The notes beneath the pieces were generated by a model. It saw nothing but the letters and a program-made list of their open reading frames with translations, was not told the origin of the DNA and did no database searches. 64,000 bases of DNA from an uncultured bacterium (GTDB taxonomy: Bacteria; Verrucomicrobiota; Kiritimatiellia; RFP12; UBA1067): the NCBI GenBank assembly GCA_902776615.1, contig CACYQU010000003.1:1434-65433 (forward strand). Direction: 5' to 3'. Both the position numbers and the translations under genes were made by a program. Below are positions 47,001-62,900 of the stretch, in pieces (the stretch's first letter is position 1; each line of letters starts with the position of its first letter).

Positions 47001-48831
47001 CCCAGTCCCATCCGGCGTGGCAGGCAGGCTTGCGGATGAGCGCCTGGTTTTTCGCCCACTCTGCGTTGGACATCGGATAGGCCCTGCCTATCGCGACGCG
47101 GCGCTCGTCGGCCTCGACGACCGGACTTCTGAACACGCCCTCGATGGTGTTTTCTCCCTCCTTCAAAAACGGCCTCGCGTCGAAGTCGTAGCGCCTGAAG
47201 CGGTTTGACGTGCGCCCGATTTCGCGTCCGTTGATTTTCACCGTGCAGAACGTATCGCAGTCCTCAAGCCGCAGAACGATCTTGTCCCGCCGCAGAAAAG
47301 CGCCGTCTGCGTTGAACTTGCGCGAGAAGGTCCAGTCCCTGCGGGCTACCCAGAGGCTCTTTTTTTCGTTCGCGCCCCAGTAGATGTCGTCTATCGCGCC
47401 AACCTTCAAAAGCGCGTCGTGGACTCCGCCCGGCACGACCGCGTCCACAGTGCGCTCGCAGTCAGAAACCTGCCATGTTCCGGCGAGGTCGATTTCGGCC
47501 TTGGCGGCGCACGGCGGCGCGGCGCAGGCAGGCGGCGCGGGCGACCCGCCGGAAAGCCGCGCCTTGAGGTCGGCCCATCTGTAGAATGCGCCGTAGACGG
47601 TTTCGAGTCCGCGCAGACGCGTCTCGCCCTCGTTGAACAGGACCTTTACAATCACATCTCCAGCACCGTTACGGTAAAAGATCATCTGGACGTTCGCCGC
47701 CATCGGCATGGCCGATATTATTTCCTCGTGGTCGGCGGCCTCGGCCATGGGGACGCTGTCGCCCGCGCCCTCCACGCCAAGCCGACAGACGAACGGCCAG
47801 AGCGCCGCGTCATGCCCGAAGCGCAGATCCGCCGCAATGCCGCCGTGCGTGATCGCCTCGTCCGCCTTGACCGCAAAGTCCTCCGCGAGCGGCGCCGCGC
47901 ATGAAACGACGCAGTCGCCGAACTCCGCCGAGTTCCCCATAAGCGCGTACCACCTCGCATCCATCATCCGCGCGACTGTCACAAGCTCGTCCTTGGTGAA
48001 GCAGTCGTCTATCGTAAGCCCGGCAAGCTCGACCTCAAGCGGACGGCACGCCGCGAACATGTAAAACAGGCTTCTGATGAACAGCGACGATTCACCGGCC
48101 ATCTCGTCCGCGCGGGCCGTGTCGGTAAAGAGCCGCGCCATGAACGCCCGCCTGTCGAACGTCGCGCTCAAAATGCGCTCGGCGGCAGCCGTGCCGTCCT
48201 CAAGAGCCTTTTTGCGCTTCGGCGAACTGCTGAGCAGTTTGGACATAAGCCGCTCGCCCGTCTTGAATTCAAAGTCAAGCACGGGGGCAAGCCCCTTCAG
48301 CTCGCACGCGAAATTGGCAAGGCTCATGTTGCAGCGCGTGAACGTGCTCGTCTCGCAGCGCACCTTCCTGCCGGCGCGGAACACTTCAGGGACGCGCTCG
48401 AACATCCGCCGCGCTATTCCTCTGTGCTCCGCCGCGCCGCGGGCGGAAAGCTCGCCGTACATCCCTGCATGCGCATCGCGTATGACCTTGAGCTTCTTGA
48501 AAAGCGCACGGCCCTCGTCCGTAAGAATTCCCGCGGCGTCGGCCTTCGCCATGACTCTGGCCGCATAGCAGTTGTCGCGCTCCGACTGATAACGGCTTCC
48601 GTGGCGGCCGTAGTGGCTTATATAGAAAGGATGATATCCTGCCGGCGCGAACGTCTCATGAGTCGCGACCGGCTTGTAGCGGCGGAATATCACCGTGCTC
48701 AGTTCGGGGTCGCCGGCGACCGCCGACGCGAAGTCGCGCGGCGCGCCGTCCGCCCACGCGCCAGCCGCGATCGACAAGGCGGCGACCAGCGCGGCGGCGC
48801 AGATTCCACCGGCGTTGGGAAGGCGGCTCAT
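44098..48831 (-). CDS. Secreted fusion: histidine acid phosphatase + GH2 beta-mannosidase + GH5 glycoside hydrolase
   Basis: Signal peptide. RHGSR and GHD (phosphatase). GWDWGP, KGANWIP, RVWGGG, WCGDNE, SEFG, WQLND.WP (GH2 mannosidase). RGVNL, RLPLDY, NEP, HCY, GEFG (GH5). Confidence 0.88.
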   Translation of the reverse strand: MSRLPNAGGICAAALVAALSIAAGAWADGAPRDFASAVAGDPELSTVIFRRYKPVATHETFAPAGYHPFYISHYGRHGSRYQSERDNCYAARVMAKADAAGILTDEGRALFKKLKVIRDAHAGMYGELSARGAAEHRGIARRMFERVPEVFRAGRKVRCETSTFTRCNMSLANFACELKGLAPVLDFEFKTGERLMSKLLSSSPKRKKALEDGTAAAERILSATFDRRAFMARLFTDTARADEMAGESSLFIRSLFYMFAACRPLEVELAGLTIDDCFTKDELVTVARMMDARWYALMGNSAEFGDCVVSCAAPLAEDFAVKADEAITHGGIAADLRFGHDAALWPFVCRLGVEGAGDSVPMAEAADHEEIISAMPMAANVQMIFYRNGAGDVIVKVLFNEGETRLRGLETVYGAFYRWADLKARLSGGSPAPPACAAPPCAAKAEIDLAGTWQVSDCERTVDAVVPGGVHDALLKVGAIDDIYWGANEKKSLWVARRDWTFSRKFNADGAFLRRDKIVLRLEDCDTFCTVKINGREIGRTSNRFRRYDFDARPFLKEGENTIEGVFRSPVVEADERRVAIGRAYPMSNAEWAKNQALIRKPACHAGWDWGPEVESIGFCGTVKLLASDRPRVDYVYTTQTFSDDLGHCTLDVFADLSDGTTVTNRIEIDNPPLWWPNGAGAQNFYTFTVDVNGEKITRRIGLRKLEVLNERTVSPEGKEELSLVFRVNNRRLFMKGANWIPCDALETRQTPERYRDLLESAKAANMNMIRVWGGGQYEKDVFYDLCDELGLLVWHDMMHACAVYPADDAFLGEIEGELSHQLRRLRDHASIALWCGDNECLGAIRWFKETRENYDFYKSAWIARSKRQGELVAKFDPTRTYWPSSPCCGPGDFGDAWKDDSKGDMHNWDVWHENAPFSKYYKYRPRFCSEFGYQSFSSPEVAATFAKGPCEDFEWHQKNPGGNRRIRETMVRYFGAAKDFESELVLSQFQQAMAIRTAVEAWRAAMPRCMGTLFWQLNDNWPVASWSSVEYGGKWKPLQYMARRFFEPVAVVARPREDGVVEVFGLDDTADEIRGELEVEYWPYDGAKCASSRKKVVALAPEGATPLAELKPSERALRGDEFAAITLRTDRGVSRCEWHFVPYREAKLAKARVTASPVPSGDGAFKVELSTDRPAFFAWLDVRGVRGEFDDNCFTLLPGRNATVCFTPKAGESISAEEFAQRLAVVSLSGLLLEPRLERVQLADEVVDGRPEKRWRGVNLLDMLSVDYNEKGGFKEEDFEILEDFGFNFARLPLDYRYFVKGHDRARWTEFDEDGLKFLDQAIEMGRRHNIHVQLCLHRIPGYTSGTPAEPTSIFDDGATLKAACLHWATLAARYKGVPNKELSFNLFNEPDYMRERKYAPVVRELVAAIRAKDPGRFIVADGLGYGRIAPTSLCGVNGLGFGWHCYDPFFVTHHQTPWNDPESVSETPRWPVDSTNPRKWLIKDIYTSKDWNEVIGKGAFVYVGEFGVWKKTRHDIALGLLEDQLRLWRELNCGWALWGLYGGFGILDSERDDVEYEDYRGHKLDKQLLELLKRY

Positions 48832-48837
48832 ACCGCA

Positions 48838-49935
48838 TCACCTCGCAGAGAAGCGGAACTCGGTCGTCGAACGGTAGGTCTCGCCCGCCTTGACGAACGT
48901 CGTCGGCCACTGGGGCTTGTTGGGCGAGTCGGGCGCGTGCTGGGTCTCAAGCGCGACGCCGCAGCGGAACGACAGATGCTCGCCGCCCTTCGCCTTCTGG
49001 TCGTAGCTCGCCCAGTTGGCGGTGTAGACCTGCAGGCAGGGTTCGGTAGTCCACACCTCGACGGCGCGTCCGTTTAGCGGGCAGTACAGTCCGCCGGCCT
49101 TTACGAGGCCTCCCTTTCCGCCAGCCATCACGCCTTCGTCGAGAATCCAGTTGTGATCATAGCCTTTGCCGATTTCAAGCTGTTCGTCGCCTTCGTTGAT
49201 CCTCTCGCCGATTCGCATGCCGCGGCGGAAGTCGAAGGGGGTACCGTCCACCTTGGCGATTTCGCCCGTGGGAATCTGCCCCTTGTCGGTCGGCGTAACC
49301 GCGCTGGCGGCGATGGTCATGATATGGTCTTCGATCGTGCCGCCTGCCTCGCCCTTGAAGTTGAAGTAGACATGCTGCGTCATGTTGATCGGCGTCTCTT
49401 TGTCGGGCACAGCCTCGTAATCGACGCGCCACACGTTGTCCTTCGTAAGAGTGTACGTGACCTTTACCTCGACCTTGCCGGGGAAGCCCTCGTCGCCGTC
49501 AGGCGAGACGTGGGTGAAGACGACGCCCACGTCGTCGCCCTTCACGAACGGCTCCGCGCCCCACACGTAGGCGTTCCACCCGCGCGCGCCGCCATGCAGG
49601 TTGCAGCCGATTCCGCCGGGCGCGTTGTTGAGCGCCGGCAGTTTGTATTCGACGCCGTTCATCGTAAAGCGTCCGTTGGCGATTCTGTTTCCGTAGCGCC
49701 CGATGATGCAGCCCCAGTAGGCGTCGCCTTCGTCCCAGCCGGCCGGGGAGTCGAAGCCAACGACGACGTCCTTCATCTTTCCTTCGCGGTCGGCCGTGAA
49801 GAGCCGCACCACCTTGCCGCCGTAGTCGCTTACCTCCAGCACGACGCCGCCGGCGCCGTTCAGGGTGAACTTTCGCGCCTTCTCGCCGTACTTCGTTGTT
49901 CCGAAATCGCTTACCTCGTAGCTTGGGCTGGACAT
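48838..49935 (-). CDS. galM: Aldose 1-epimerase (mutarotase)
   Basis: GRYGNRI, LHGG, GFPG, HVYFN, GYDHN, QVYT, ALETQ. Confidence 0.93.
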   Translation of the reverse strand: MSSPSYEVSDFGTTKYGEKARKFTLNGAGGVVLEVSDYGGKVVRLFTADREGKMKDVVVGFDSPAGWDEGDAYWGCIIGRYGNRIANGRFTMNGVEYKLPALNNAPGGIGCNLHGGARGWNAYVWGAEPFVKGDDVGVVFTHVSPDGDEGFPGKVEVKVTYTLTKDNVWRVDYEAVPDKETPINMTQHVYFNFKGEAGGTIEDHIMTIAASAVTPTDKGQIPTGEIAKVDGTPFDFRRGMRIGERINEGDEQLEIGKGYDHNWILDEGVMAGGKGGLVKAGGLYCPLNGRAVEVWTTEPCLQVYTANWASYDQKAKGGEHLSFRCGVALETQHAPDSPNKPQWPTTFVKAGETYRSTTEFRFSAR

Positions 49936-49986
49936 GACTGACTCCTTTTTGATGTTGTGTTGGTTGTTGAAGCTGGTTCTGCATTC

Positions 49987-50232
49987 CTACATTCTGCGGC
50001 TCGTCACCTCGATGACGTTCACCTGGTTCCTGAGCTGCAGGATTATCTGCTCGACGACCTTGTCCGTTCCGAGAATGTCGATCTTCATCCGCGAGACGGT
50101 TCCATCCTCGGTCGGGCCGACGTTTAGCGTCTGGATGTTGTAGCCGCGCCCGGAGATGAGCCCCACGATCCGCGCCAGCACGCCCGGCTTGTTTTCCACG
50201 TAGCAGTTGAGCCTGTGTGTCTGTTCGTTCAT
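49987..50232 (-). CDS. ilvN: Acetolactate synthase small regulatory subunit (ACT domain only, 81 aa)
   Basis: VENKPGVLARIVGLISGRGYNI; SD AGGAG; follows ilvB. Confidence 0.9.
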   Translation of the reverse strand: MNEQTHRLNCYVENKPGVLARIVGLISGRGYNIQTLNVGPTEDGTVSRMKIDILGTDKVVEQIILQLRNQVNVIEVTSRRM

Positions 50233-50252
50233 TTTAAGCGTACTCCTTCGCC

Positions 50253-51986
50253 TCACTTGAAAACCATTTCGCTCACGGGCTTGCCGGCGGGAATCATCGG
50301 ATAGACGTTGGCGCGCGGCTCGACGATCACTTCGACGACGGTCGTTTTCTTCGACTTTACCGCCTTCGCGATCGTGGCGTCGAGCTTGGCCGGGTCGATG
50401 ACGCGGTAGGCCTCGGCGCCATGCGCCTCGGCGAGCTTCACGAAATCGGGCAGATAGTCGTATTTGAGATCCTGCTCGAGCCGCTCGTTCGCGGCGCGGC
50501 CGCGCACAGTCAGAATCGAGCCCGAGTAGTTCTTGCCGTAAAAGAGCTCCTGCCACTGGCGCACCATGCCTAGGCAGCCGTTGTTTATTATGACGAACGT
50601 TACCGGAAGCTTGTGCTCGACGGCGACCACCACCTCCTCGAAGGTCATCTGCGCGCCGCCGTCGCCGCACACCGCGACCGTCTTGTGGTCGGGACGCGCG
50701 ATTGCCGCGCCGATCGCGGCGGGAATTCCGAAGCCCATCGTTCCCATTCCGCCGGACGTGAGGAAGTGGCGCGGAATCGAATAGCGGAAGTGCTGCGCGG
50801 CCCACATCTGGTGCTGGCCGACGTCTGTAACCATCACGGCGCGGCCGCTCGTGGCCTTGTCTATCGCCTCCATCACGGCCTGCGGCATGATCACTTTCGG
50901 GTGCATCTGGCGCCATGTGACGGGGTGGCTCTTCTTCCAGCCGTCGATTTTGGCGATCCACTCGGGATGGGTCGCGGACTTCACGCGCGAAAGCACGGTA
51001 GTCAGAACGTCTTTCACATCCGCCACGATTCCGAGCGCGACGGAGACGTTCTTGCCGATGGACGCCGGGTCGCAATCGACATGCACGATCCTCGCCTTCG
51101 GCGCGTATTTGGAAATCTTGCCGGTGACACGGTCTGAGAAGCGCACGCCGAGCGCGATTATGAGGTCGGCTTCATTCATCGCCCAGTTGGCGGCGGGAGT
51201 ACCGTGCATGCCGGCCATTCTGAGGGAGAGCGGGTCGCGCTCGTCGAAGCTGCCGAGACCCATGAGCGTAGTCGCGACGGGAATCCCCGCCCTGTGCGCG
51301 AGCGTCGCCACGTCCTTCGCCGCGCCGGACGCAATCACGCCGCCGCCTGCGTATATCACGGGGCGCTCGGCCTCGTTGATGAGCTTGGCGAGGCGGGTCA
51401 TCTGCGCCGAAGTGGCCGCGCTTTCGGGATGGTACGCGCGAAGGGAGACGCGCTCGGGATACTGAGCGGAGGTCAGGCCCTGCTGGCAGTTCTTCGGGAT
51501 GTCGATCACCACGGGGCCAGGCTTGCCGTGAGTCGCGATGTAAAAGGCCTCGGCGACAATCTCGGGGATCTCGTCCGCGCTCTGCACGAGGAAGCAGTGC
51601 TTCGACACGCCGCGCGCGACACCGGTCGTGTCCGCCTCTTGGAAAGCGTCGGTCCCGATAAGCGACATTGGGACCTGGCCTGTGATGACGACGAGCGGTA
51701 TGCCGTCGATGTTCGCCGTGGCAAGGCCCGTTATGGTGTTTGTCGCGCCGGGGCCGGAGGTAACCAGGCACACGCCAGGCTTGCCGGTCGAGCGGGCATA
51801 GCCGTCAGCCATGTGGACGCAGCCCTGCTCGTGACGCCCGAGAACAAACGGGAACTTTGCGTCTGTAAGACAATTGAATATGTCAAGCGCCTGTCCGCCT
51901 GGATAGCCGAACAGCACTTCCGTACCCGCCTTGGCGAGCGATTCGACGAGAGCCTGCGCACCCGTTCTCTTTGCATTCTGGTTCAT
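50253..51986 (-). CDS. ilvB: Acetolactate synthase large subunit
   Basis: FGYPGG, RHEQG, TSGPGATN, DVGQHQMW, GDG...NN..LGMVRQWQ. Confidence 0.96.
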   Translation of the reverse strand: MNQNAKRTGAQALVESLAKAGTEVLFGYPGGQALDIFNCLTDAKFPFVLGRHEQGCVHMADGYARSTGKPGVCLVTSGPGATNTITGLATANIDGIPLVVITGQVPMSLIGTDAFQEADTTGVARGVSKHCFLVQSADEIPEIVAEAFYIATHGKPGPVVIDIPKNCQQGLTSAQYPERVSLRAYHPESAATSAQMTRLAKLINEAERPVIYAGGGVIASGAAKDVATLAHRAGIPVATTLMGLGSFDERDPLSLRMAGMHGTPAANWAMNEADLIIALGVRFSDRVTGKISKYAPKARIVHVDCDPASIGKNVSVALGIVADVKDVLTTVLSRVKSATHPEWIAKIDGWKKSHPVTWRQMHPKVIMPQAVMEAIDKATSGRAVMVTDVGQHQMWAAQHFRYSIPRHFLTSGGMGTMGFGIPAAIGAAIARPDHKTVAVCGDGGAQMTFEEVVVAVEHKLPVTFVIINNGCLGMVRQWQELFYGKNYSGSILTVRGRAANERLEQDLKYDYLPDFVKLAEAHGAEAYRVIDPAKLDATIAKAVKSKKTTVVEVIVEPRANVYPMIPAGKPVSEMVFK

Positions 51987-51996
51987 TAGGTTAGGT

Positions 51997-52005
51997 ATTA
52001 TACCA
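51997..52005 (-). promoter_or_regulatory. Extended -10 TGGTATAAT for ilvBN, overlapping the stop codon of the upstream transposase
   Basis: Hexamer ends 10 nt before the ilvB ATG. Confidence 0.6.
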
Positions 52006-53092
52006 AACTACGCATAACAGGGCTAGCCCCCTCGCCGCGAGCGGCTCGATTCGGCGAGTACCTGCCCATCGCTTTCATCATCGTCGCGAGCATTCCGTTT
52101 GGCGCGATGTCGCCGACCCATATCTCGTCGGCGTGGCGAAGAACGTATTCATTGCACCATGCGGCGACTTTCTTGTTGAGGCGTGATCCGGGCCGCTGCG
52201 GCGAAATAAAAAGAATGCGACCTTCGGCCAAGGCTGCGAGAAGATCGTTCGAGAGCTCGCTTTCGAGGGGCAGCCCCTGGGGGACGACCTTGATTGCCGA
52301 GCGGCCTTTGGCAAGAGCGCGGCGCAGAGCCTCGCGCTCCTGCGCGCTCGTGAATGTCGATATGATCGGCATGTCGTGCGGGGCTGAAGCCCCGCGGACC
52401 GAGACAGCCGCCCCTCCCATATCGGAGCGGCCGACTTCACGCCTCCAAACCATTTTCGGCTTAAGATCGCTCGCCCAGAAACCATGGGAAGCGACGAAGG
52501 CGATTCGCGGGCCGTTGAGCAGATCGAGGTTGCCGAGCGAGTACTGGGTCACTGCGCCGAAGCGGTCGCGAGTCCAGTTCGCCGGGTTTTCGCGAATGTA
52601 GCGGCGGAAGGCGGCGAGCTGCTGCTCGCTCGTAACGATCTTGTCCCAATAGTCGAACTGCCAAAGATGGTCGCCGATGTCATCGACCTCGCCCGCGCGG
52701 CGCATCTTGCCGTAGATATAGCCGGTTCCGCCCTTGAAGCGGCCCAGCAGAAAGCCGAGGTGATGCTCCTTGTTCGTTGGACGGAACTTGATTCGCACGA
52801 TGGCGTGGAAGTGGTTGGGCATGACGACAAACTCGTCAAGCTCCAGCTCGGGGTATTTCGCCGGCAACTCGCGCCAGTATGCCTCGACCCTGCGCCCGAG
52901 CTCGTTCAGCTCGCACCGGTCGCCCACGATCGCGCCGAATATCGACTTGTTGTGCGCAGTCTGCCACGTGACGAAGAACCAGCCGTTGCGATAGTTGATG
53001 TTCGCGTTGCGAAGCGACTTTCGAAAGCGCGGCACCTCTGCCGCGCTTCCACGACGCTCGCCCGCATCATCTCTCGCCGATCTCACGCACAT
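51998..53092 (-). CDS. Y1/HUH (RAYT, IS200-like) transposase fused to a C-terminal DprA/SMF(SLOG)-like domain
   Basis: FFVT, DEFVVMPNHFH (HUH), LWQ..Y.D, YIRENP (catalytic Tyr). Then GNLDLL..RIAFVAS, IISTFTS..ER, EGRILFISP, NEYV. Start set by TGGTATAAT 6 nt upstream. Confidence 0.82.
   Translation of the reverse strand: MCVRSARDDAGERRGSAAEVPRFRKSLRNANINYRNGWFFVTWQTAHNKSIFGAIVGDRCELNELGRRVEAYWRELPAKYPELELDEFVVMPNHFHAIVRIKFRPTNKEHHLGFLLGRFKGGTGYIYGKMRRAGEVDDIGDHLWQFDYWDKIVTSEQQLAAFRRYIRENPANWTRDRFGAVTQYSLGNLDLLNGPRIAFVASHGFWASDLKPKMVWRREVGRSDMGGAAVSVRGASAPHDMPIISTFTSAQEREALRRALAKGRSAIKVVPQGLPLESELSNDLLAALAEGRILFISPQRPGSRLNKKVAAWCNEYVLRHADEIWVGDIAPNGMLATMMKAMGRYSPNRAARGEGASPVMRSLV
52378..52395. 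repeat. REP-like hairpin GCGGGGC-TGAA-GCCCCGC inside the transposase gene
   Basis: Perfect inverted repeat of the same geometry as 53222-53239. Confidence 0.6.
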
Positions 53093-53121
53093 GCCGAAAT
53101 TATACCACAATTCCTGCCCTC

Positions 53122-53222
53122 GCGCCCATATCGGACCGACGCCCATATCGCCGATGCGCTCATATCAACACGGCGCTTGCATCGACACGGCGCTTGTATC
53201 GGTCCGCGCTCATATCGGTCCG
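53122..53222. repeat. Six degenerate 16-17 nt tandem repeats (GCGCYCATATCGRYMCG-like)
   Basis: Units start at 53122, 53139, 53156, 53173, 53190, 53206. Confidence 0.8.
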
Positions 53223-53239
53223 GCGGACTTTAGTCCGCC
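53222..53239. repeat. REP-like hairpin GGCGGAC-TTTA-GTCCGCC
   Basis: Perfect inverted repeat directly after the tandem array. Confidence 0.7.
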
Positions 53240-53246
53240 ATTTCAT

Positions 53247-53450
53247 CTCCACCCCGACCATGAAGAACCGATCGAGCGCGTTGGTGGGCGAGTGCCATTC
53301 TTCGCCCGACTCCAGCCCCGCCTTGCCATAGATGGTGTACCGTCTCCGCGACTCCTCCGCCGCGCTCAGCTTCGGCGACCATTCGACGACCGGCGCGCCG
53401 CCGACCATCGTAATCGTCGCGGCGAACACCGAGTTCGTGTCGCTCGGGTC
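53247..53450 (-). pseudogene. Orphan C-terminal domain fragment of a surface/secreted protein, copy 1 of the 204-bp direct repeat
   Basis: DPSDTNSVFAATITMVGGAPVVEWSPKL...YTIYGK..W...RFFMVGVE. No parent gene upstream; no stop where copy 2 has one. Confidence 0.72.
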
Positions 53451-53485
53451 ACGCGCCAGCGCCCTGCCACAGATGCAACATTATT

Positions 53486-53494
53486 TGGTATAAT
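53486..53494 (+). promoter_or_regulatory. Extended -10 TGGTATAAT for the second transposase
   Basis: Exact motif 50 nt upstream of ATG 53545; SD-like GGGAG. Confidence 0.6.
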
Positions 53495-53503
53495 TCCTGC
53501 ACG

Positions 53504-53530
53504 GAAGGTCTGACCTTCTTTGCAATGTTT
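53504..53530. repeat. Left palindromic end motif GAAGGTC-T-GACCTTC-TTTGCAATGTTT
   Basis: 27-bp exact match to 54615-54641. Confidence 0.85.
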
Positions 53531-53544
53531 TGCAGGGAGAAACA

Positions 53545-54624
53545 ATGTCACATTCAAACAACCGTGTAAAAGAACACGAGACTGTGCATCATCTTATCAG
53601 CAGAATAGCGCACCGCGTCTATTTTCTGAAAGACGACGAACGCAAGGATTTCCTGGAGATCGCCCGCCGGGCAGCGCAGTTTTCGGGCGTACAGCTGCTT
53701 GGCTGGTGCGTCATGGGGAATCATTTCCATCTGCTTGTGTTCTTGCCGACGCCACGGTTTGTGGACGAACAGGAAGTAATTGAACGATACGGAGCGCTAA
53801 AGGGACAGCTGGCGGCCTCGTCAATTACGGAAATGTTCATTGAATGGCGCAAGCAAGGCGAAACGGGAGAGCGTCGCGTGTCCGAATGGCTTGATGCACA
53901 AAGACGTCGCATGTATGACGTAGGCATATTCATGAAAATCGTCAAACAGTGGTTCACAACAGAATACAACCGCCGAAACGGACACAAGGGAACACTATGG
54001 GAGTCGACGTATTTCGACAGGGTTGTTCCGCGATGCTTGTCAGAAATGGCGAAGTGCCTTGCCTACATTCACCTGAATCCAATACGTGCTGCTGCCTCGG
54101 ACAAATTCGATGGATATGCGTGGAGCAGCTACTCGGCGTTTCGGAAAGGCGATCCGACCGCGACAGCCGGAATGCATTTCATTTACGGGAAAGAGGAATC
54201 CGATGATGCTATCGCCGGAAGGCATGAGTTTCTTCTCGAGGAATTGCTCGAGAAGGAGAAACTGCGCCGTGCGGAGGAAATCGCTCGAAAGCGAGCAGCG
54301 GGATATGAAGTGCCGACGGATCCACTTACGGACGAGGCGCTCGTGGCACAGCGGGCAGCCCATCTTGCCGAAGTACAGAAAGCATCTGTCGAACTGCGCG
54401 AAGCCCGAAACTACGAGAAGCGGCGTAGCGAGAGAGGTGCGTTGCGCGAAAAGGAAACACTATCCCTTCTCGAGGCAAATCCGGAAATGAACGCAGCCCT
54501 GCTGTCCGAACGGCTGGGCGTTGGCGTTCGCACGGCCTACTGCATCCTGAAACAACTGAAAGACAAAGGCGTCATACAGCAAGAAGCCGGCCGTTGGCGC
54601 ACAAACATTGCAAAGAAGGTCTGA
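53545..54624 (+). CDS. Y1/HUH (RAYT-like) transposase with C-terminal HTH
   Basis: HLISR, WCVMGNHFHLL, YNRR..H.GTLWES, YIHLNPIRA, YAWSS, C-terminal HTH (LSERLGVGVRTAY..LKQL). Confidence 0.88.
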   Translation: MSHSNNRVKEHETVHHLISRIAHRVYFLKDDERKDFLEIARRAAQFSGVQLLGWCVMGNHFHLLVFLPTPRFVDEQEVIERYGALKGQLAASSITEMFIEWRKQGETGERRVSEWLDAQRRRMYDVGIFMKIVKQWFTTEYNRRNGHKGTLWESTYFDRVVPRCLSEMAKCLAYIHLNPIRAAASDKFDGYAWSSYSAFRKGDPTATAGMHFIYGKEESDDAIAGRHEFLLEELLEKEKLRRAEEIARKRAAGYEVPTDPLTDEALVAQRAAHLAEVQKASVELREARNYEKRRSERGALREKETLSLLEANPEMNAALLSERLGVGVRTAYCILKQLKDKGVIQQEAGRWRTNIAKKV

Positions 54625-54642
54625 CCTTCTTTGCAATGTTTG
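54602..54642. repeat. Perfect 41-bp palindrome (20-bp arms) centred on the transposase stop codon
   Basis: CAAACATTGCAAAGAAGGTC-T-GACCTTCTTTGCAATGTTTG. Confidence 0.92.
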
Positions 54643-54669
54643 CCGTGGAATGAGACTTACCATGCGCGG

Positions 54670-54897
54670 CTACCGCAACTCCACCCCGACCATGAAGAAC
54701 CGGTCGAGAGCGTTGGTCGGCAAGTGCCATTCTTCGCCCGACTCCAGCCCCGCCCTGCCGTAGATGGTGTACCGCCGCCGCGACTCCTCCGCCGCGCCCA
54801 GCTTCGGCGACCATTCTACGACCGGCGCACCGTCAACCATCGTTATCATCGCGATGAACACCGAGTTTGTGTCGGTCGGGTCGGTGCAAACAATCAC
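54670..54897 (-). pseudogene. Orphan C-terminal domain fragment, copy 2 (repeat 54679-54882); possibly translated as a 75-aa ORF
   Basis: TDPTDTNSVFIAMITMVDGAPVVEWSPKL...RFFMVGVELR*; 19 mismatches to copy 1 over 204 bp by manual alignment. Confidence 0.72.
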
Positions 54898-55130
54898 TTT
54901 TTACGTAGTGCACGTCCTATAAGCCATGCGATCAAAACAACAGCTCCCCATGCGAACACGCTCCCAAATGAATCAAAATTCTTCTCAGAAAGAAAATCGT
55001 TGAAAAACCAACTAAATATCCCCCCTATGATCTCGAATACCCATACGACCGCTTTTACAACCAGCCATCCAACGACAACTATTAAAGCAAGGACAGCACC
55101 ACCTTTTACTATGTCGATTAGGTTACGCAT
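54894..55130 (-). CDS. Small two-TM membrane protein (78 aa)
   Basis: Two hydrophobic helices; last gene of the AT-rich operon. Confidence 0.7.
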   Translation of the reverse strand: MRNLIDIVKGGAVLALIVVVGWLVVKAVVWVFEIIGGIFSWFFNDFLSEKNFDSFGSVFAWGAVVLIAWLIGRALRKK

Positions 55131-55156
55131 GACTCATTCCGTTCAGATGACTTCGA

Positions 55157-55357
55157 TTAAATCCGAGACCATTTCGCCCAATAAGCGCAGTTTGCACCAG
55201 GTGTACTCATAGACCCAGCTTTAACACAACAAGGTTGTCGGGCCGAATCACACCGAACAACTTTTGCGCTTCCAAGATTCTCAAGCTTGCGCATCCCTTT
55301 CCAGTTTTTACATGTGGCACAAGCACGACTCTCTACCCTAATAGTAGTGCAACCCAT
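55157..55357 (-). CDS. Cys-rich microprotein (66 aa), paralog 2
   Basis: SD GAGGAGG; CATCKNWKGMR...C...CAYWAKWSRI. Confidence 0.8.
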   Translation of the reverse strand: MGCTTIRVESRACATCKNWKGMRKLENLGSAKVVRCDSARQPCCVKAGSMSTPGANCAYWAKWSRI

Positions 55358-55367
55358 ACGAACCTCC

Positions 55368-55574
55368 TCATATTCTTTCCCATTTTGACCATCGGTTACA
55401 AGTATGTGTCGCGCCACGCTCCACGCGCCACGCAGCACAATCGTTGCCACGAGGCATAATGCCGTCAACCGTAACATACTTCGGCTCACGTGCGCCAACG
55501 AAATTCACTTCGCGGCTTCCGCGCCACCACTTGCATGTGGCACAGACTTTTCTTGCTATTGGTACATTGTACAT
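55368..55574 (-). CDS. Cys-rich microprotein (68 aa), paralog 1
   Basis: SD GGAG; CATCKWWRGSR...C...CNRWSKWERI. Confidence 0.8.
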   Translation of the reverse strand: MYNVPIARKVCATCKWWRGSREVNFVGAREPKYVTVDGIMPRGNDCAAWRVERGATHTCNRWSKWERI

Positions 55575-55575
55575 A

Positions 55576-55782
55576 TTACTTTCTCCATTTTGGCCATTCA
55601 CCTAGACTCGCAGATGTTTCATCAACATCATGCTCAGAAGAATTACACCTACGCAATTCATCGCCTATGTCATCAAATTCATGGCTTAGATCCTGTAAGC
55701 CTGTTACAATCCTATGTGCGGCATCGCCAAACACATAACGTCCTAGCGCACCTACCAATGCGCCTGCTATTTCTTCCGACAT
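55576..55782 (-). CDS. Small hypothetical protein (68 aa)
   Basis: SD AGGAGG overlapping the upstream gene end; glycine-rich N-terminus, acidic C-terminus. Confidence 0.6.
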   Translation of the reverse strand: MSEEIAGALVGALGRYVFGDAAHRIVTGLQDLSHEFDDIGDELRRCNSSEHDVDETSASLGEWPKWRK

Positions 55783-55785
55783 TAC

Positions 55786-58700
55786 CTACCTCCTTCTGGT
55801 TTTAGAAACGACATTTATGTAACTACAAAGCTTTTCGAGGCTATCAACAGGGATGTTAATCAACTGACAGACCTTCGAATTGATGGTTATGGCATTTTTT
55901 TGAGCCTCCACGCTCTCTATACTTTCAAAAGGAACTCGAACAGGGTCTTCCATGAAGTTTTTGAAGTACACCGCATCATTGGTGACAAGCATACCCTCCT
56001 TAGCACTACCGAAGACAGTTGAATCAATCAAGAAACGAACAGAGTCGATGGGCTCCCGCACTTTCATTGAAACGAATGCGTTCCGAAGTTTCTTCTCAGG
56101 GATACTTCCTTCCACAAAGAGGCAACTGCACGGAGATTTTGCAAATTCCGCTATATCCGGAGTGTCGGCAGATTGTCCATCAGTTTTTACTGCGGATAAC
56201 CGATCAAGACATGTTGATTCTTTAGCGAAAGCAACTAATTTAACGAGCGTATCTCTACAGGCATCTGCATCGCCATTGGAATTGGTAAAGTCGAACACAA
56301 CCCCTTTCTCAAAAGTTATTTCGCCACGATTCGGTTTTGACGGGGAGTCAAGCGAAGCAAGCTCTTTCCACGAATACGCATTACGAGCAGTTTCCACCGT
56401 ATCGTTCTTCCATATGACACCCCATCGCGATACGACAAGCCCGATTTTTGCCGAACCAAAGATCGTTGTGTCAACTATGGCGAAAACGCCGTCGTCCTGT
56501 ACACCAGAAAGATATGTTCTCGCACCTACAAGTTTCTTGGGTGGGATGCCGTCTTTGAAATAGAAGCCATTGTCATTTGATGAAGTTATTGCAGCTTCAA
56601 CCGCTGCGAAGAACGCCTCGGACGAATCACGTTTTGCCGCAGCCTCTTCGCGGGTTTGATACTCTATGCCAAAAGCTGTTCGCGCAAGTTTGTCAAACCG
56701 CTCCAATTCTCTGTTCACGCGCTCAAGTTTCCAAGTGCCATCAATGCCAAGTCGCGTCGCCATTGCAATAATATCCGATTTAAGTTTGATGGCAGATGCT
56801 TCGTCGGTAATCGTGCAGCTTTTCTCGAAATCAACAAGCTCTCGCTGCTTGGCAGCTTCTTCCCGGGTTTCGAAAATTCTGTCTCCTGCTCTTCTTGCTG
56901 CTTTGTCAAAACATTCAAGCGCCTGTGTGACACGCTCCATTTTCCACGCGCCGTCAACTCCAAGCTTTTTTATGAACTTCTCTAATTTAGCTTTAGCTTC
57001 TATGGCTGACTCTTCGCTTGACAGATCTAGTTCTGCCTCATATGCAGAAAGTTTCCTTTGTTTGTCGGCTTCATCACGGGTGGGGAACTCCCTGCCGTCA
57101 ACCGTACGGTATTCACAGTCAAGCCGTTTTAAAGCAGCATCTATCACTGCAAGATCTTCAGATATGTCGAGTTCCAATTCCCCTGCTGCCTTCACAATCC
57201 TATCTCGATAATCATGAGCACTACTCTCGGCGGACAAATCCGCATCACCGACTATTTTTTTCAGCAACTCTCTCTTTAACGGATTGACATCGACTCGTGC
57301 CGCGCGCGCGATATCATTGATAGGACCTTTCCCGTTGTCATCCAAGTAGCAATAGCTGACCACATCTTTTTTGAACGGGCAGAACTGAAGCATTTTTAAC
57401 TTTGCTTCGTCTCGCCCTGTATCTGCGAAGTTACCGTTCCCTATCTCATCGTTTTCTAATAGTTCTAGAATGTCCGAGGCCGCATCTTCATTGTCTGAAA
57501 CTCCGCTTTCACCTAGTGTCCACCCATTTTCTTCTATCATCCTTCGAAGAAAATCTTTGGTGGAATTCACTGTCGAACAAATCTGGACGAATATTCCAAA
57601 ATGCAGTTTCCGCATTATCATGTCGGCATATGTTTCCTTATCAACGTCATAGTCTCCAGAAACGAAAATTGCCATCATTTCATCTATTTCATCCCCAACA
57701 GTTTTCACATTATTCAATAACTTTGAGATGAAATTGTCGGCCTCTCTGTGACAGTCATCGGGTAAATCAAATAGCTTTAATTCCCATTCAACGTGGCGTC
57801 TAAGATCCTTCTCCGCCTCCTTGAGGATGCTCTTCCAGCTATGAGCGGCTTCGTCCGGCGAAATGTCTCTATATTTTGGAGGAGCTTTTTCTTCGTCGGC
57901 ACATTCCTGATCTCCATATTCTGCGAGGTCCTTCCAAAATGACCAGAAACTCCAATTGGCATATTCTGGCAGTCCATTTTTTACGATGCCTCCGTAAATT
58001 GCAACTTCGCCAGCTTTAGGTTTAGACGAGTTGACGGATTTTTCCTTTTTTTTGTTTTTCTTACCAGGCTTCAGCTTGTTTATGGCAATTGCCGCTTCAG
58101 ACGCTTCGCACATGGAATTTTTCTTATCTTTTTCATCATCCCGGCGATGTCTGTTGCTGCGACTTTTGGATGATGAAACGATTCCGCCGATATCCTCTGA
58201 AGTCAACTTTTCGTTCAATTTCTCTATGTCTATTTTTGCTTCTCGAACTATATCATTAATTGGACCTTTGCCGCCATCGTCAAGATAACAATACGCCACT
58301 ACCTCGTCATTGAACGGACATAATTGCAACATTTTCAATTTTGCTTCTTCAATAGTCGTGTCCTTAAAATCTCCTTTCCCGATTTCGCCGTCCTTCAGCA
58401 ATTTCAAAATCGTTAATGCCGAATCTTCTTCTTCGCCATTCCCTATTTCACCAAGTGGGTATCCATTACTATCAATCACTTTTCTGACACAATCTTTCGT
58501 TGCATTCATAGCCCAGCAGATTTGCACATAGATGCCATAATACATCTTCTTCATCACTTTTTCGACAAAGTCATCCTTATCACCATCAAAATCGCCTGAT
58601 GCGAACTCTTCCATTATAGCATTTACTTCCTGCCCAGCCTGTTCCACATTGTTCATATAAGACACTATACATTCCTTGACTTTCTCTCTATCTAGCTCTG

Positions 58701-59049
58701 GGATATCAAATAACTCTAATTCCGTTCTTGCATAAAGCCAAAGCCGCTTTGTCGCATCCTTGAGAATGTCTTCCCAACGTAGCGCTGCATCCATATGATT
58801 TAGGTCGCGATACTTCGGCGGAATCTCTTCTTCGTCTGCACATTCTTGATTCCCATATTCGTTAAGATTCTTCCAAATAGACCAGAACGCCCAATTATTA
58901 CGTTCACGTTCGCCACATTTTACGATACCACCATATATTGCAACTTCACCGTCTTTCAAGCGAGATGCTTTTTGCGATTTCGAGCCGCTTTTCTTCGGCT
59001 TCTTCACTCCTGTAGGCGCATTACCTGTTTGCTTTGCTATTTTAGGCAT
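55786..59049 (-). CDS. Large modular repeat protein (1087 aa), function unknown
   Basis: SD GAAAGGAAG before MPKIAK; 2 x ~245-aa, 3 x ~70-aa and 2 x ~100-aa internal repeats; AT-rich. Confidence 0.85.
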   Translation of the reverse strand: MPKIAKQTGNAPTGVKKPKKSGSKSQKASRLKDGEVAIYGGIVKCGERERNNWAFWSIWKNLNEYGNQECADEEEIPPKYRDLNHMDAALRWEDILKDATKRLWLYARTELELFDIPELDREKVKECIVSYMNNVEQAGQEVNAIMEEFASGDFDGDKDDFVEKVMKKMYYGIYVQICWAMNATKDCVRKVIDSNGYPLGEIGNGEEEDSALTILKLLKDGEIGKGDFKDTTIEEAKLKMLQLCPFNDEVVAYCYLDDGGKGPINDIVREAKIDIEKLNEKLTSEDIGGIVSSSKSRSNRHRRDDEKDKKNSMCEASEAAIAINKLKPGKKNKKKEKSVNSSKPKAGEVAIYGGIVKNGLPEYANWSFWSFWKDLAEYGDQECADEEKAPPKYRDISPDEAAHSWKSILKEAEKDLRRHVEWELKLFDLPDDCHREADNFISKLLNNVKTVGDEIDEMMAIFVSGDYDVDKETYADMIMRKLHFGIFVQICSTVNSTKDFLRRMIEENGWTLGESGVSDNEDAASDILELLENDEIGNGNFADTGRDEAKLKMLQFCPFKKDVVSYCYLDDNGKGPINDIARAARVDVNPLKRELLKKIVGDADLSAESSAHDYRDRIVKAAGELELDISEDLAVIDAALKRLDCEYRTVDGREFPTRDEADKQRKLSAYEAELDLSSEESAIEAKAKLEKFIKKLGVDGAWKMERVTQALECFDKAARRAGDRIFETREEAAKQRELVDFEKSCTITDEASAIKLKSDIIAMATRLGIDGTWKLERVNRELERFDKLARTAFGIEYQTREEAAAKRDSSEAFFAAVEAAITSSNDNGFYFKDGIPPKKLVGARTYLSGVQDDGVFAIVDTTIFGSAKIGLVVSRWGVIWKNDTVETARNAYSWKELASLDSPSKPNRGEITFEKGVVFDFTNSNGDADACRDTLVKLVAFAKESTCLDRLSAVKTDGQSADTPDIAEFAKSPCSCLFVEGSIPEKKLRNAFVSMKVREPIDSVRFLIDSTVFGSAKEGMLVTNDAVYFKNFMEDPVRVPFESIESVEAQKNAITINSKVCQLINIPVDSLEKLCSYINVVSKTRRR

Positions 59050-59056
59050 TTTCCAC

Positions 59057-59250
59057 TTCCTTTCATGTTGCCGCACAAAGACAACAAAGTCCCCGCGTGC
59101 GTACCGCAGAGGCGACTGGTATGCCCGAAAGGAAACGCGACGCGGGGACGAAATCGGCATAGTGCGCCCAGTGGACGCGCCAAGACAATTTATCTTTGCG
59201 TTGTGCCTTCCTTTCAAGATGATTACCAGTCTTCCTGCGGGTTGGCAACT
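59057..59250 (-). ncRNA. Structured 5' leader, C4-antisense-like translational switch candidate
   Basis: Central stem 59089-59098/59140-59149 encloses boxes complementary to an upstream segment and to the SD. Confidence 0.55.
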
Positions 59251-59256
59251 GACGGT

Positions 59257-59265
59257 ATTATAGCA
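59257..59265 (-). promoter_or_regulatory. Extended -10 TGCTATAAT for the AT-rich operon
   Basis: Lies immediately upstream of the structured leader. Confidence 0.6.
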
Positions 59266-59407
59266 AAATTCGCCGCTTCTGTGCGAGCGGACTTCACCTC
59301 ACGCCGCCAGCCGCCTCTTTCGGACAACCAGCCACCGTAATATTACACGCAGGAGACGCGAGAGAATGACAGCAGAGACGAATTTCAGTAAAAGTCTGAA
59401 CCAAAGG

Positions 59408-60583
59408 TCAGAAAAACCTATCCACCGCGCACGAAAAGAACATCTCCGGAGACATGCCTTGCCCTCCTATTAGATATGGTTTTGCACGAGCATACTTGGC
59501 CTTGAATTCCTTCATCCCCGAAACACTGTCCGCATCTGCTGTCTTGACCTCCATCGCGACTAGTCCATCGCCTTTGCTAAGGACGAAATCAACCTCCTTG
59601 TTTCCGACGTTCCAATATCGCAACTGAATATCATTTCTGCGGCAGCTTGGTATAAGACGCGCACCAACGGCAGACTCAAAGGCATGCCCCCATAATTCAT
59701 GCCTCGAACGGAGTTCGTTGAATCCGTATGGTAGCATCGCCGTCATCAACGCCGTGTTGCAGACCACCAGTTTAGGGCTGGACGCCTTGACGCGAACAAC
59801 CTCTTCGTAGTATTTCTCTATTCCCACGACCAGCCCCGCCTCGCCAAGGAGTGCAAGATAATGCGCAAGCGTAGTGGCATTTCCTGCGTCTTGGAGCTGT
59901 CCAAGCATTTTCTGATAGGACATAATCTTGCCCGAATACGTGCAGGCCAGCGCAAAGAGCTGACGGAGAAGCGCTGGCTTTGAAATGCGCTCAAGCTGGA
60001 TTATGTCACGACTTATGCTCGGCTCTATGATTGAATCCCTCAGATAAGTCCTCCATCGCTCCTCATCTCGAATGTATGGGACGGCTCCGGGATACCCTCC
60101 AAACATCACAAAATCCTCAATTGAAAAACCAAATGCCTCATGCATCTGCTCGTAAGACCAGTGCCATGCCTCAACAAGCTCGAACCTTCCCTCAAGGCTC
60201 TCATTCAAACCCTTCTGAAGCAGGAGACGGGAACTTCCCAGAATCAAAACCTTCAAAGAAATGTCTTCAAATGAGTCTTCGTCCCAGAGTCGCTTGACAA
60301 CCTCAGACCATCCGACAATCTTCTGTATTTCATCGACAACAAGAAGATACTCCCCAAGAGACTTTGCCTGAAGTCGGGCTTGCTGCCATTCGCTCTCCAA
60401 CCACGCAAGGGGATTTACGCCCAGACCCCCCGCAAGACGGTATGTAAACGGCTTGGCATAATGCTTCAAGGCCTGCTTGACGGCCGTCGTCTTGCCCACT
60501 TGTCTGGGCCCAGCAACAACCTGAATTCGAAGCCGTTTCTCATTTAAACGACTCGCTACTACATTTAACCAATGGCAATTCAT
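59408..60583 (-). CDS. AAA+ ATPase with DUF4143 (PD-(D/E)xK-like C-terminus)
   Basis: GPRQVGKTT, VVDEIQK, LGSS, ESLEGR, GGYPG, EVDFV, AMEVK. Confidence 0.9.
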   Translation of the reverse strand: MNCHWLNVVASRLNEKRLRIQVVAGPRQVGKTTAVKQALKHYAKPFTYRLAGGLGVNPLAWLESEWQQARLQAKSLGEYLLVVDEIQKIVGWSEVVKRLWDEDSFEDISLKVLILGSSRLLLQKGLNESLEGRFELVEAWHWSYEQMHEAFGFSIEDFVMFGGYPGAVPYIRDEERWRTYLRDSIIEPSISRDIIQLERISKPALLRQLFALACTYSGKIMSYQKMLGQLQDAGNATTLAHYLALLGEAGLVVGIEKYYEEVVRVKASSPKLVVCNTALMTAMLPYGFNELRSRHELWGHAFESAVGARLIPSCRRNDIQLRYWNVGNKEVDFVLSKGDGLVAMEVKTADADSVSGMKEFKAKYARAKPYLIGGQGMSPEMFFSCAVDRFF

Positions 60584-60592
60584 ACATAATTA

Positions 60593-60658: not shown

Positions 60659-60732
60659 GTGCCAGGCGGGTTGAAAGATTGAAACGGGAGCAACAGCACA
60701 TCACAAACTATACCGAAAGCAGTTTGTAGGCG

Positions 60733-61341
60733 TCAAAACTCATTCTCAATCGCGGCGATCATGCGCTCAACACGGGTCTTTATCTGCGAGACGGAGTTGC
60801 GCGGAATGTTGAACTCGGCGGCGACCTCGCCTATCGGACGCTCCTCAAGCACATATGCGCGATAAACCGCTTTTGACTGCGTAGAAAGCGCCGTCTTTGT
60901 AAGCGCCCACTCGACAGCCGCCCTGCGCCGCGCAAGCCGCCACTTTGCGTCGATCGCCGCAGCCGTTTCGGATTCGACAGCCGCCTCGACGCCCGATTCG
61001 GGGTCGTCAAGCGAAACGCACACTCCCTCTCCGCGCGTCACACGCTTGCGCCATCGACTGACAAGTTCATTTCTCACAAGCGTCGCGAGATACCGGCGGA
61101 ACTTGCCAGAATCACCGCCCACCTTCACGCGCCCTTCCCGCAAGACTTCCACGAGCCGCATGAAAATCTCCTGAACCACATCCTCGCTCTCGTCTTCGCT
61201 TCCGCGCTCCTCGGCAAACGCCTTGATCGCAGGTGCATACAGCTCGAAGAGTCGCGTCCATCCGGCTTCGTCGCGTATGCCAGTCTTGTCCGACGCAAGC
61301 CGAACGAGTAGCAAAACCGGTGTATCGGGAAAGTTCGCCAT
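60733..61341 (-). CDS. ECF sigma-70 factor (kinase-associated type)
   Basis: TP..LLVRL, W.RLFELY.P, EDVVQE, GKFR.YL, region 4 HTH; coupled to the kinase stop. Confidence 0.87.
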   Translation of the reverse strand: MANFPDTPVLLLVRLASDKTGIRDEAGWTRLFELYAPAIKAFAEERGSEDESEDVVQEIFMRLVEVLREGRVKVGGDSGKFRRYLATLVRNELVSRWRKRVTRGEGVCVSLDDPESGVEAAVESETAAAIDAKWRLARRRAAVEWALTKTALSTQSKAVYRAYVLEERPIGEVAAEFNIPRNSVSQIKTRVERMIAAIENEF

Positions 61342-62900
61342 CACTCCTTCCCCAGCGCGAGCCTCAGCGTGCTGTTCCATCCCCATTCGCCGACAAGCGA
61401 CTTCTCGGCAATGCCATCCGGCCCGAGTTGGATGTGTTTCGGCCTGCCTTTTTCATCTGCCCCTTCCGTCTCGCGGCAGATCGTCCGCCCCTGTCCAACG
61501 ATATCGTAGACGCCCCAGGCGTTCGGCGGCTTCGTCCGGACTCTACACGGCATCTTCGCCATAATGCTTTCCCACTTGACACCCTTCTCGGCGGCGAGCG
61601 CCTTCTTGTCCGCGACAGACGGACCCTCCACGCCGAGCGCAGACGCGTCCGCCGCGTTCGCGCCACCAGCCGTTGACGCAATGGCGAGTTCGTTCGTCGA
61701 CGGAAGCCTGAATATGCATCCTCGCGGCAGATGCGCAGCGAAACGGCGGTTGAGTTCGTCGATGAATCTCACAATATCCGTCATGGACATAGCGATAGCC
61801 GGCTCATCGTCCGCGCCATCGCGCCTATTTCCTGTGACGCGCCACCACTCGGCGTTAGTAACATGGCTTGCACCGATCCAAAACGGCGCGTCCGATGAAT
61901 CGCGGCATTCGACCATCTCGATGCGCACGCCATCACCAAGATCGAAGGTGAGTGGGGGAGTTTCGTTTGGCCATGCAGAGCGTGTAGAATAGAACACCAA
62001 AGTAGCCGCGATTACGGCGCAGATGGAGCCGATAAATGCAAGGCGCGTCAAAACATTCCTGTGCGGACGAACTGCGTTCGTCCGCGCTTTTCGCAGAAAC
62101 TCGACAAGCTTCACCGGTCTTACCGCCGGGTCGTCAGAAAGCATCGCCGGAAGTATTTTGTCCCAAGGCCCCTCAAGCGGTTCCAGAAGCCGCAGAGCAT
62201 CTGTTCCAGGCTCGTACCATATGCCGGTCAGCAGGCGAAAGAACACTACGCCGAGCGCATATACGTCGGACGCCGCGCTCGCCTCTTCGCCTCTCTTGAT
62301 TTCCGGCGCGAGATATCCACCCGTTCCCATGACAAGCCGCCGCGCCGATTCCTCGTATCCTGCGACGATGGTCTTCTCGACTCCGATCTCGCGCTTGATG
62401 CGTCCATGCTCGTAGCGGGAGATTCCGAAGTCGACGAGAACAGCGTCGTTCTTCGCATCGAGAAGAATGTTCGATGCCTTTACGTCGCGATGGACTATTC
62501 CTTCGGCGTGTATGCAGTCGAGCGCGGACGCTATCGACTCCATCCAGCGAAGACGGTCGGCGTCCGTAAACTCGTCCGGCGATATATCCGCCAAAGTGCG
62601 CGGCTCTCCCTTCGAATCAAGCACGAGATTCATGACGAAATACGCCGTGCCGTCAGGAAGTACGCCAAGGTCGAACACGCGCGCGACATTCGGGTGCTCA
62701 ATGCGCGCGAGGGCGCGTCCCTCGGACATGAAACGCTCGCGCAGAAAATCCGCGTCGCCGCTTTCGAGAACGAATGTCTTCAGTGCATAGCGCGTTCCGA
62801 GGGCGAGATGCTCGACCTCGTACACCTCGCCCATGCCGCCAACGCCGATCCGCCGAACGATGCGGTAGTTACCGACTTTTTCGCCTTGCTTCATCGCCAT
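61341..62900 (-). CDS. Membrane Ser/Thr protein kinase with C-terminal FGE-sulfatase-like domain
   Basis: GVGGMGEVY, ALK, HRDVK..N, DFG, GT.GYLAPE, TM helix, FRLPS..E, PNAWGVYD..G. Confidence 0.9.
   Translation of the reverse strand: MAMKQGEKVGNYRIVRRIGVGGMGEVYEVEHLALGTRYALKTFVLESGDADFLRERFMSEGRALARIEHPNVARVFDLGVLPDGTAYFVMNLVLDSKGEPRTLADISPDEFTDADRLRWMESIASALDCIHAEGIVHRDVKASNILLDAKNDAVLVDFGISRYEHGRIKREIGVEKTIVAGYEESARRLVMGTGGYLAPEIKRGEEASAASDVYALGVVFFRLLTGIWYEPGTDALRLLEPLEGPWDKILPAMLSDDPAVRPVKLVEFLRKARTNAVRPHRNVLTRLAFIGSICAVIAATLVFYSTRSAWPNETPPLTFDLGDGVRIEMVECRDSSDAPFWIGASHVTNAEWWRVTGNRRDGADDEPAIAMSMTDIVRFIDELNRRFAAHLPRGCIFRLPSTNELAIASTAGGANAADASALGVEGPSVADKKALAAEKGVKWESIMAKMPCRVRTKPPNAWGVYDIVGQGRTICRETEGADEKGRPKHIQLGPDGIAEKSLVGEWGWNSTLRLALGKE

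Follow-up and report, generated by a model that had tools for sequence, protein, structure and literature searches.

Why should a bacterium of the ruminant gut carry two copies of the end of a surface-protein gene, with no such gene in front of either and a transposase-like gene between them? The question is raised by a stretch of 64,000 nucleotides (nt) of contig CACYQU010000003.1, from an uncultured member of the Kiritimatiellae, which we refer to as the window. The repeated segment, coding for the 3' end of a surface protein, is called the tail here; its two examples in the window are copy A and copy B (WIN_A and WIN_B in comparisons), and tail positions are numbered on a 218-nt reference, negative values being nt upstream of the tail start. 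An earlier note on this DNA took the pair to mark an integration target, cut at one codon, that collects foreign cassettes in tandem. We place a probability of about 0.6 on a plainer account, in which both copies are what remains of the 3' ends of BspA-LRR/Flg_new surface-protein genes, without function, in decay and stranded by left-anchored sequential displacement. The repeats would then be a known kind of recombination scar, and not a new integration system or mobility mechanism.

Orphaned ends of surface-protein genes

The direct repeat covers 53244-53450 and 54676-54882, 207 nt at 90% identity, and its start-to-start spacing of 1432 nt is the length of a unit with one tail. A recount over the 204 nt considered earlier returned exactly the 19 mismatches then reported, 11 synonymous and 8 non-synonymous, for a pN/pS (non-synonymous to synonymous ratio) of 0.24. 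Both copies lie on the minus strand: copy A, the older one, at 53244..53450, and copy B at 54670..54887, where the codons TDPTD...VGVELR are followed by a TAG stop. Read along that strand the order is, as the earlier note had it, an AT-rich operon, copy B, a palindrome-bounded HUH unit, copy A, a repeat array and a second HUH gene, and neither copy has a parent gene upstream of it within the window.

An assembly artefact, a caveat raised with the original proposal, is ruled out by independent assemblies and by bridging Logan contigs. The arrangement of copy A, HUH unit and copy B recurs in L045 (97.5% identical over window 54887-53218), in L040/L058 (genome G149) and in L060 (genome G161, 80%), and Logan contigs from two runs bridge it, at 53359-54752 and 53367-54790. 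At least half of the sampled words from 53100-55000 are present in 20 runs of 10 studies on ruminant or other gut samples, one of which is possibly the source sample. Related loci came from scans of public genome and metagenome contigs (7 and 12 loci); most of the genomes compared are metagenome-assembled genomes (MAGs), from Kiritimatiellae, Lentisphaerae or Verrucomicrobia of ruminant guts, and the relatives are not independent, with L040/L058, L043/L088 and L044/L089 being probable duplicate records.

Elsewhere, homologues of both copies form the ends of intact genes. With the tail as query, 721 of 1.84 billion representative proteins matched at E<=1e-3, and among the 150 best representatives the match ended no more than 6 residues from the C-terminus in 121, of which 81 were at least 300 amino acids (aa) long, which upholds the earlier statement that this tail ends many secreted proteins. 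Close relatives of full length include P0004 (718 aa, 84% identity) and P0005 (1176 aa, 82%). Of 40 relatives 26 had tail matches, which for the most part terminate open frames 400-2500 aa long, and the parent genes at the related loci encode LRR_5 (BspA-type), Flg_new, BACON and LamG domains, with about 70 further conserved residues before the tail, ending ...MYVWQDYVAGTDPTDTNSVF. Against Pfam and NCBIfam the tail copies themselves gave nothing at E<=0.1. In an AlphaFold2 model (pLDDT, the predicted local distance difference test score, 83), the final 150 residues of a parent form helices followed by a small beta domain that spans the tail; Foldseek found nothing in the PDB at E<=0.001 with this module, and its best VIA-align matches, of fibronectin type III kind (Z 4.6, root-mean-square deviation 2.2-2.6, 55-61 aligned residues), fall within the background range. 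A literature search for the tail in Kiritimatiellae produced nothing relevant, which is no proof that the tail is undescribed.

At the related loci the tail can be seen in place, on the same strand as the operon in every copy. It ends intact genes in L045, L046, L047 and L038. In L045 the counterpart of copy B follows in frame after the full conserved upstream stretch of the parent, where the window has the AT-rich operon, and in L046 the tail at the copy A position, with the array and the second HUH gene directly downstream, ends an open LRR_5/Flg_new frame of 485 aa. Contigs of other runs match the window until 53451 or 54887 and then continue into parent-type sequence, as judged against the parent consensus. 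The host genome carries the tail at six places including both window copies: on C45 and C71 it ends long open frames (about 50% identity), on C33 a weak match ends a 913-aa frame, and a third short orphan lies at C47:2805-2954 (locus L005 1444-1668), a 74-aa open reading frame (ORF) with an ATG start that begins some 20 residues into the tail. Neighbours of the C47 orphan are a 166-aa ORF without Pfam match and an rnfA/rnfB-like pair, named by eye; a label of truncated ATPase for the ORF upstream of it was dropped, there being no Pfam match.

The orphans are decaying. The TAG stop of copy A in L045 reads TGG in the window, where the frame runs on into the array to give an 89-aa ORF, and frameshifts or stops lie inside the orphans L043_1, L054, L056 and L045_A. 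Likeness of copy B to the parent genes begins at 54887, where it adjoins the stop codon of a 78-aa membrane-protein ORF, and its own frame could open at a GTG that overlaps that stop. The thought that the orphans are functional small genes, each a stand-alone 70-aa beta domain under selection, is hardly credible to us: the low pN/pS, the overlapping GTG start and the 27 of the best 150 representatives that are 135 aa or shorter would suit it, but four orphans are broken as just described, 12 of 23 are truncated to varying extents at the 5' side, copy A has lost its stop, a low pN/pS would be expected if the alleles diverged while parts of working genes, the copies being no closer to one another than to parents, and the short database proteins P0003, P0007 and P0001 are gene-caller read-throughs, as many of the others may be.

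The claim that the two copies are cut at the same codon did not survive closer alignment. Likeness between A and B does begin at GACCCG, yet the true 5' ends differ. Upstream of copy A about 27 nt of the former coding sequence persist in decayed form (53451..53478, minus strand, roughly MYVWQDYVAG), 18 of 28 positions being equal to the parent consensus, and at the junction with the copy 5 nt have been deleted from a CCGAC-CCGAC-CGAC repeat. That deletion, judged against four intact genes, is common to WIN_A, L045_A, L040_2 and L039; parent traces extend upstream over 19 of 28 positions in L040_2 and over about 46 nt in L039, and in local alignments against shuffles they stand about 4 standard deviations out for these two, the window copy alone not being significant. 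L039 has the same deleted pseudogene, beside other cargo and with no HUH unit. Hence copy A is best taken as an old remnant with its real 5' end some 27 nt ahead of the 'DP' codons, one that predates the adjoining HUH unit and is independent of it. Copy B matches parents 5-6 nt further upstream, with a junction that comes from a different event; compared with L050 and L054, its junction with the 78-aa ORF lacks a 59-aa ORF and four codons.

Tabulating the 23 orphan copies of the related loci and the window, which the earlier note had itself named as the way to refute a common breakpoint, gave 5' ends at about -46, -26, -11, 0, +11 and +14 and then from nt 38 to 149, scattered and not at one site. 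The 3' side is kept (to nt 208 or beyond of 218) in 20 of the 23, only two having lost 3' sequence other than at a contig end, and the 5' start lies after nt 14, at nt 38-149, in 12. The truncations are also nested, in that the lineage sharing the 5-nt deletion keeps different upstream lengths (about -26 as against about -46) beside different cargo.

A slot with a conserved left edge

By sequence comparison the locus is syntenic among relatives: a kinase, an ECF (extracytoplasmic function) sigma factor, a non-coding stretch of 286 nt, a variable operon, a tail and a RAYT-like gene. In the window the left flank consists of a Ser/Thr kinase gene (61341-62900) and an ECF-type sigma factor gene (60733..61386, minus strand), and the conserved non-coding stretch that anchors the slot on its left occupies 59091..59376 on the minus strand. 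This stretch is 86-89% identical to those of L039, L047 and L055; in each of them likeness stops at 59091 and differing cargo follows, and the sigma factor and kinase genes are syntenic in L047 and L055. A conserved upstream anchor with differing downstream content is what was found.

The cargo of the window in this slot is a foreign, AT-rich operon (54894..59217, minus strand), which fills the place held by surface-protein genes in relatives and has a GC content of 0.40-0.48 against about 0.60-0.65 in the flanks. It encodes a protein of 1143 aa, two small Cys-rich paralogues and the 78-aa membrane protein. The 1143-aa protein (55786-59217, minus strand) contains an internal duplication of about 300 aa, and repeats at its C-terminus (residues 1034-1113) match BnzA of the Bunzi defence system at E 9e-23; the operon, also present in L052, L054 and L060, may by its sequence be a defence or toxin cassette. 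Between the sigma factor gene and the non-coding stretch sits an AAA_14/DUF4143 ATPase gene (59408..60583, minus strand), extra relative to L047 and L055, which PADLOC assigns to the candidate defence family PDC-S01 (E 5.6e-159). DUF4143 ATPases adjoin tail remnants in L041 and L051 also.

The relatives show other occupants of the same slot. L055 has the kinase, sigma factor and non-coding stretch, then 3.8 kb of other genes, a tail remnant from nt 85 and the RAYT-like gene. L047 has the sigma factor and non-coding stretch, about 9 kb up to a 2319-aa LRR protein with intact tail, and then a PIN-domain ORF (10478-10948, E 1.3e-12), followed by a tail remnant from nt 92 and the RAYT-like gene; the PIN gene, between an intact tail and an older remnant, thus takes the position of the HUH unit in the window. 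L039 has the non-coding stretch, about 9.7 kb encoding LamG, BACON/Flg_new and LRR proteins and a 294-aa ORF, and then the orphan tail. Downstream of that tail, at a distance of about 1.4 kb, is an exosortase (EpsH) plus DUF3485 gene (L039 11651-13174); no PEP-CTERM features are visible in the L039 orphan tail. L050 carries the 78-aa ORF, the 59-aa ORF, a single tail, the array and the RAYT-like gene, without the HUH unit. The cargo thus ranges from the Bunzi-like AT-rich operon, PDC-S01 ATPase and HUH genes of the window to the PIN or DUF4143 genes of relatives, and the part of the original proposal that saw accretion of cargo is borne out to the extent that the locus turns over foreign cargo and tails pile up at its downstream edge; the part that made the tail an integration target cut at one site is not.

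Between the tails lies a palindrome-bounded unit on the plus strand (53486..54642), made up of a TATAAT-like box, a left palindrome (53498-53530), the first HUH gene (53530-54624) and a right palindrome (54602-54642), the palindromes being 33-41 nt long. The product has a Y1/HUH domain and a winged helix-turn-helix; it scores 29 bits against the Pfam Y1_Tnp cut-off of 23, over profile positions 7-61 of 121 only, and its catalytic tyrosine is placed only through what we take to be a YIxxNP-type motif. The second Y1/HUH gene (51998..53146, minus strand), RAYT-like, is the conserved right neighbour of the tail in relatives, and joins a Y1/RAYT-like half at the N-terminus to a PsyrA/DprA-like one at the C-terminus (PsyrA E 5e-8). 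The two proteins are only remotely alike; an HFH (HUH-type) motif is present in both translations. A further RAYT-like copy in the same genome (C54:11913-13022, 70% identity) contains one TGA. Beyond the second HUH gene on the minus-strand order lies an ilvB-like gene.

Copy A and the second HUH gene are separated by a tandem array of 17-20-nt units (53156..53225, no strand assigned), and directly after the end of copy A a hairpin with a 7-bp stem and 4-nt loop (53222..53239, minus strand) may be the terminator of the old gene. The 101-nt stretch with hairpin and array folds better than shuffles (z -2.07). We considered the array as a genome-wide repetitive extragenic palindrome (REP) and rejected this, the array motif not being dispersed in the genome.

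How the tails may have been stranded

The account we favour would run as follows. Recombination anchored in the conserved flank on the left would bring in new operons from other strains, while the right end would join non-homologously in or near the tail of the resident gene. Each such event would delete the body of the resident gene and push its tail downstream as a 5'-truncated orphan, in the manner of homology-facilitated illegitimate recombination (HFIR). Copy A would be the older remnant, and copy B the tail of the next incoming gene, whose body was later lost to the AT-rich operon. As tails are about 85-93% identical between alleles, the tail would double as an ordinary homology arm, and cargo between or before tail copies could be exchanged by homologous recombination.

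The identities among tails are in keeping with an origin in different alleles. The comparison took in 18 tail copies, from parents as well as orphans; pairwise identity is 78-94% among 17 of them (L052 is 72-82% identical to the rest), without grouping by context, and WIN_A and WIN_B at 90% are no closer than WIN_A and the L038 parent tail at 91%. Recent tandem duplication in situ was rejected, given that the two HUH genes are only remotely alike and the two tails resemble one another no more than they do those of other genomes. The comparison with L045 is a mosaic: the HUH gene body agrees at 1065 of 1071 positions (99.4%), copy B at 203 of 218 (93.1%) and copy A at 190 of 207 (91.8%), the stretches nearest the HUH unit are identical (46 nt and 27 nt), and upstream of copy B the two are unrelated. 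Such a pattern fits homologous exchange with crossovers in the tails.

Several observations weigh against this account. The right flank past the RAYT-like gene is not conserved, being ilvB here, a release factor in L047 and a regulator in L044. As many as 11 of the 23 orphans start at nt 1-14 (-46 to +14 with decayed traces), and none of the 23 keeps the roughly 70 conserved codons upstream, which would not be obvious if right-hand joins fell at random. Tandem units of tail and HUH gene occur in L040/L058, L048, L046 and L043, which integration of a circular unit would fit as well. Finally, the recombination steps are inferred from end states, no transfer event having been observed.

The alternative that stands up best, improbable as we consider it, is that a circle with one tail and its cargo, for example the 1432-bp tail plus HUH unit, integrated by homologous recombination into a resident tail in Campbell fashion. 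This would give tail-cargo-tail and, when repeated, tandem units, and it is the closest workable form of the idea in the earlier note. The spacing of the copies, the single-tail state of L050, the mosaic with L045 and the tandem orders in L040/L058 (tail, HUH gene, tail, HUH fragment) and L048 (tail, RAYT-like gene, tail, RAYT-like gene) would all suit it. It is harder to square with L039, where the pseudogene of copy A survives as a longer remnant without the HUH unit, or with the spacer between right palindrome and copy B stop, which is not conserved among the window, L058 and L060. No circle junction was seen in run contigs, in which rare circular forms could not show; two weak joints, with sides of 28-30 nt, were the only candidates. 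These joints, in run X1, skip the HUH unit (53238 to 54679 with 13 other letters between, and 53292 to 54758), and with sides so short, at 90% likeness, we do not accept them as evidence of excision. Likewise weakened at the sequence level is the notion of copy B as a passenger of the HUH unit, because copy B agrees at 93.1% where the gene agrees at 99.4%, the spacer is not conserved and L059 holds the unit without a tail.

A long shot, in our view, is that the tail is a portable landing pad, so that units of one tail copy plus cargo, be it an HUH gene, PIN gene, ATPase gene or defence operon, move between tail-bearing surface genes, possibly with help from the RAYT-like enzyme. Were this true, each unit would replace the resident tail while the gene was kept, and what resulted would be a cassette system of the attC kind, with a protein-coding module as its basis.

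Slightly more doubtful still is site-specific capture, in which a Y1/HUH protein would nick single-stranded DNA at the 5' edge of the tail, and cassettes of tail plus cargo would be inserted at it as at an attC site. Two unrelated HUH genes do lie between tail copies in several genomes, the junction of the RAYT-like gene 3' end with tail nt 1 recurs in L043, L048 and P0001, and several orphan 5' ends fall within about 60 nt. Against this, the junctions are spread from -46 to +149, and no hairpin beyond chance was found by folding the DNA at the 5' edge of the tail on either strand of both copies (z -0.45 to +0.55). The association of tails with HUH genes is also loose: below about 70% identity, homologues of either HUH gene mostly have no tail beside them. 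Of the 221 family genomes, 45 contain homologues of the first HUH gene (one copy in the host genome, one to three in relatives), with a tail within 1.5 kb at 3 of 30 loci (the window, L058 and L060), all at 85% identity or more; the loci without a tail are L059 (87% protein identity) and 26 loci at 66% or less. In L059 the core from palindrome to palindrome (82% nt identity) sits in other flanks. The RAYT-like gene, also in 45 of 221 genomes, has a tail upstream at 6 of 30 loci, mainly in close orthologues, and its orthologues in G011, G015 and G126 have in-frame stops. In the host genome the palindromes are confined to this site, a pattern search allowing up to 3 mismatches finding just the two flanking examples in 2.35 Mb at 87.75% completeness. 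PIN and DUF4143 ATPase genes are bracketed by tail pieces as well, with other breakpoints. In runs X1 and X2 the palindrome is found also in contigs with quite different flanks (loose ends 53498/53534 and 54602/54643).

Profile scans matched no recombinase among the ORFs of 48000-64000. HUH proteins or circular intermediates as agents are unsupported, and we infer that the HUH genes are cargo or neighbours.

Known systems and the meaning of the slot

Displacement of this sort has precedents. [quoted passage not shown] The earlier note had called the present arrangement the reverse of Rhs orphan arrays; we regard it as the same kind of displacement, acting on genes that here have a conserved 3' end. 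The differences are in what is displaced and what arrives. In the rhs and T6SS cases (PMC5361080) what gets displaced is a variable toxin tip or an immunity gene, which can stay useful, whereas here the piece is a constant, decaying tail, and the incoming cargo may be unrelated to the resident (a defence-like operon, an HUH gene, a PIN gene). No immunity-like gene was seen after the tail at the loci examined.

HFIR (PMC3240628) combines one homologous end with one non-homologous join, and would give 5'-truncated remnants with intact 3' ends, as are present here. It has been shown experimentally in transformable bacteria and in Escherichia coli conjugation; here it is proposed for an uncultured gut lineage.

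Two other systems bear a more limited likeness. Integrons share with this locus tandem units, each with a similar element in the manner of attC, and foreign cargo; unlike them, the locus has no fixed crossover nt, no folded site above chance and no integrase linked to it. REP/RAYT and IS200/IS605 elements share the HFH motif and the Y1_Tnp matches, and palindromes lie on either side of the first HUH gene, much as REPs border RAYT genes. The HUH genes nevertheless score 54.3 and 46.4 bits on the NCBIfam RAYT model NF047646, under its 80-bit cut-off, and the palindromes are not dispersed in the genome. Set against IS200/IS605, the unit 53486-54642 has one copy in the genome, and L059 holds its core in other flanks.

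For the uncultured Kiritimatiellae of the ruminant gut, the locus documents a chromosomal slot in which large surface proteins of the BspA type and defence-like cassettes take each other's place, with old gene tails left as a partial record of former occupants. There is a practical consequence for the annotation of MAGs, where a short 'hypothetical protein' (70-130 aa) that bears the tail may turn out to be a remnant or a gene-caller read-through. The slot is also one where phage-driven turnover of surface and defence genes might be sought.

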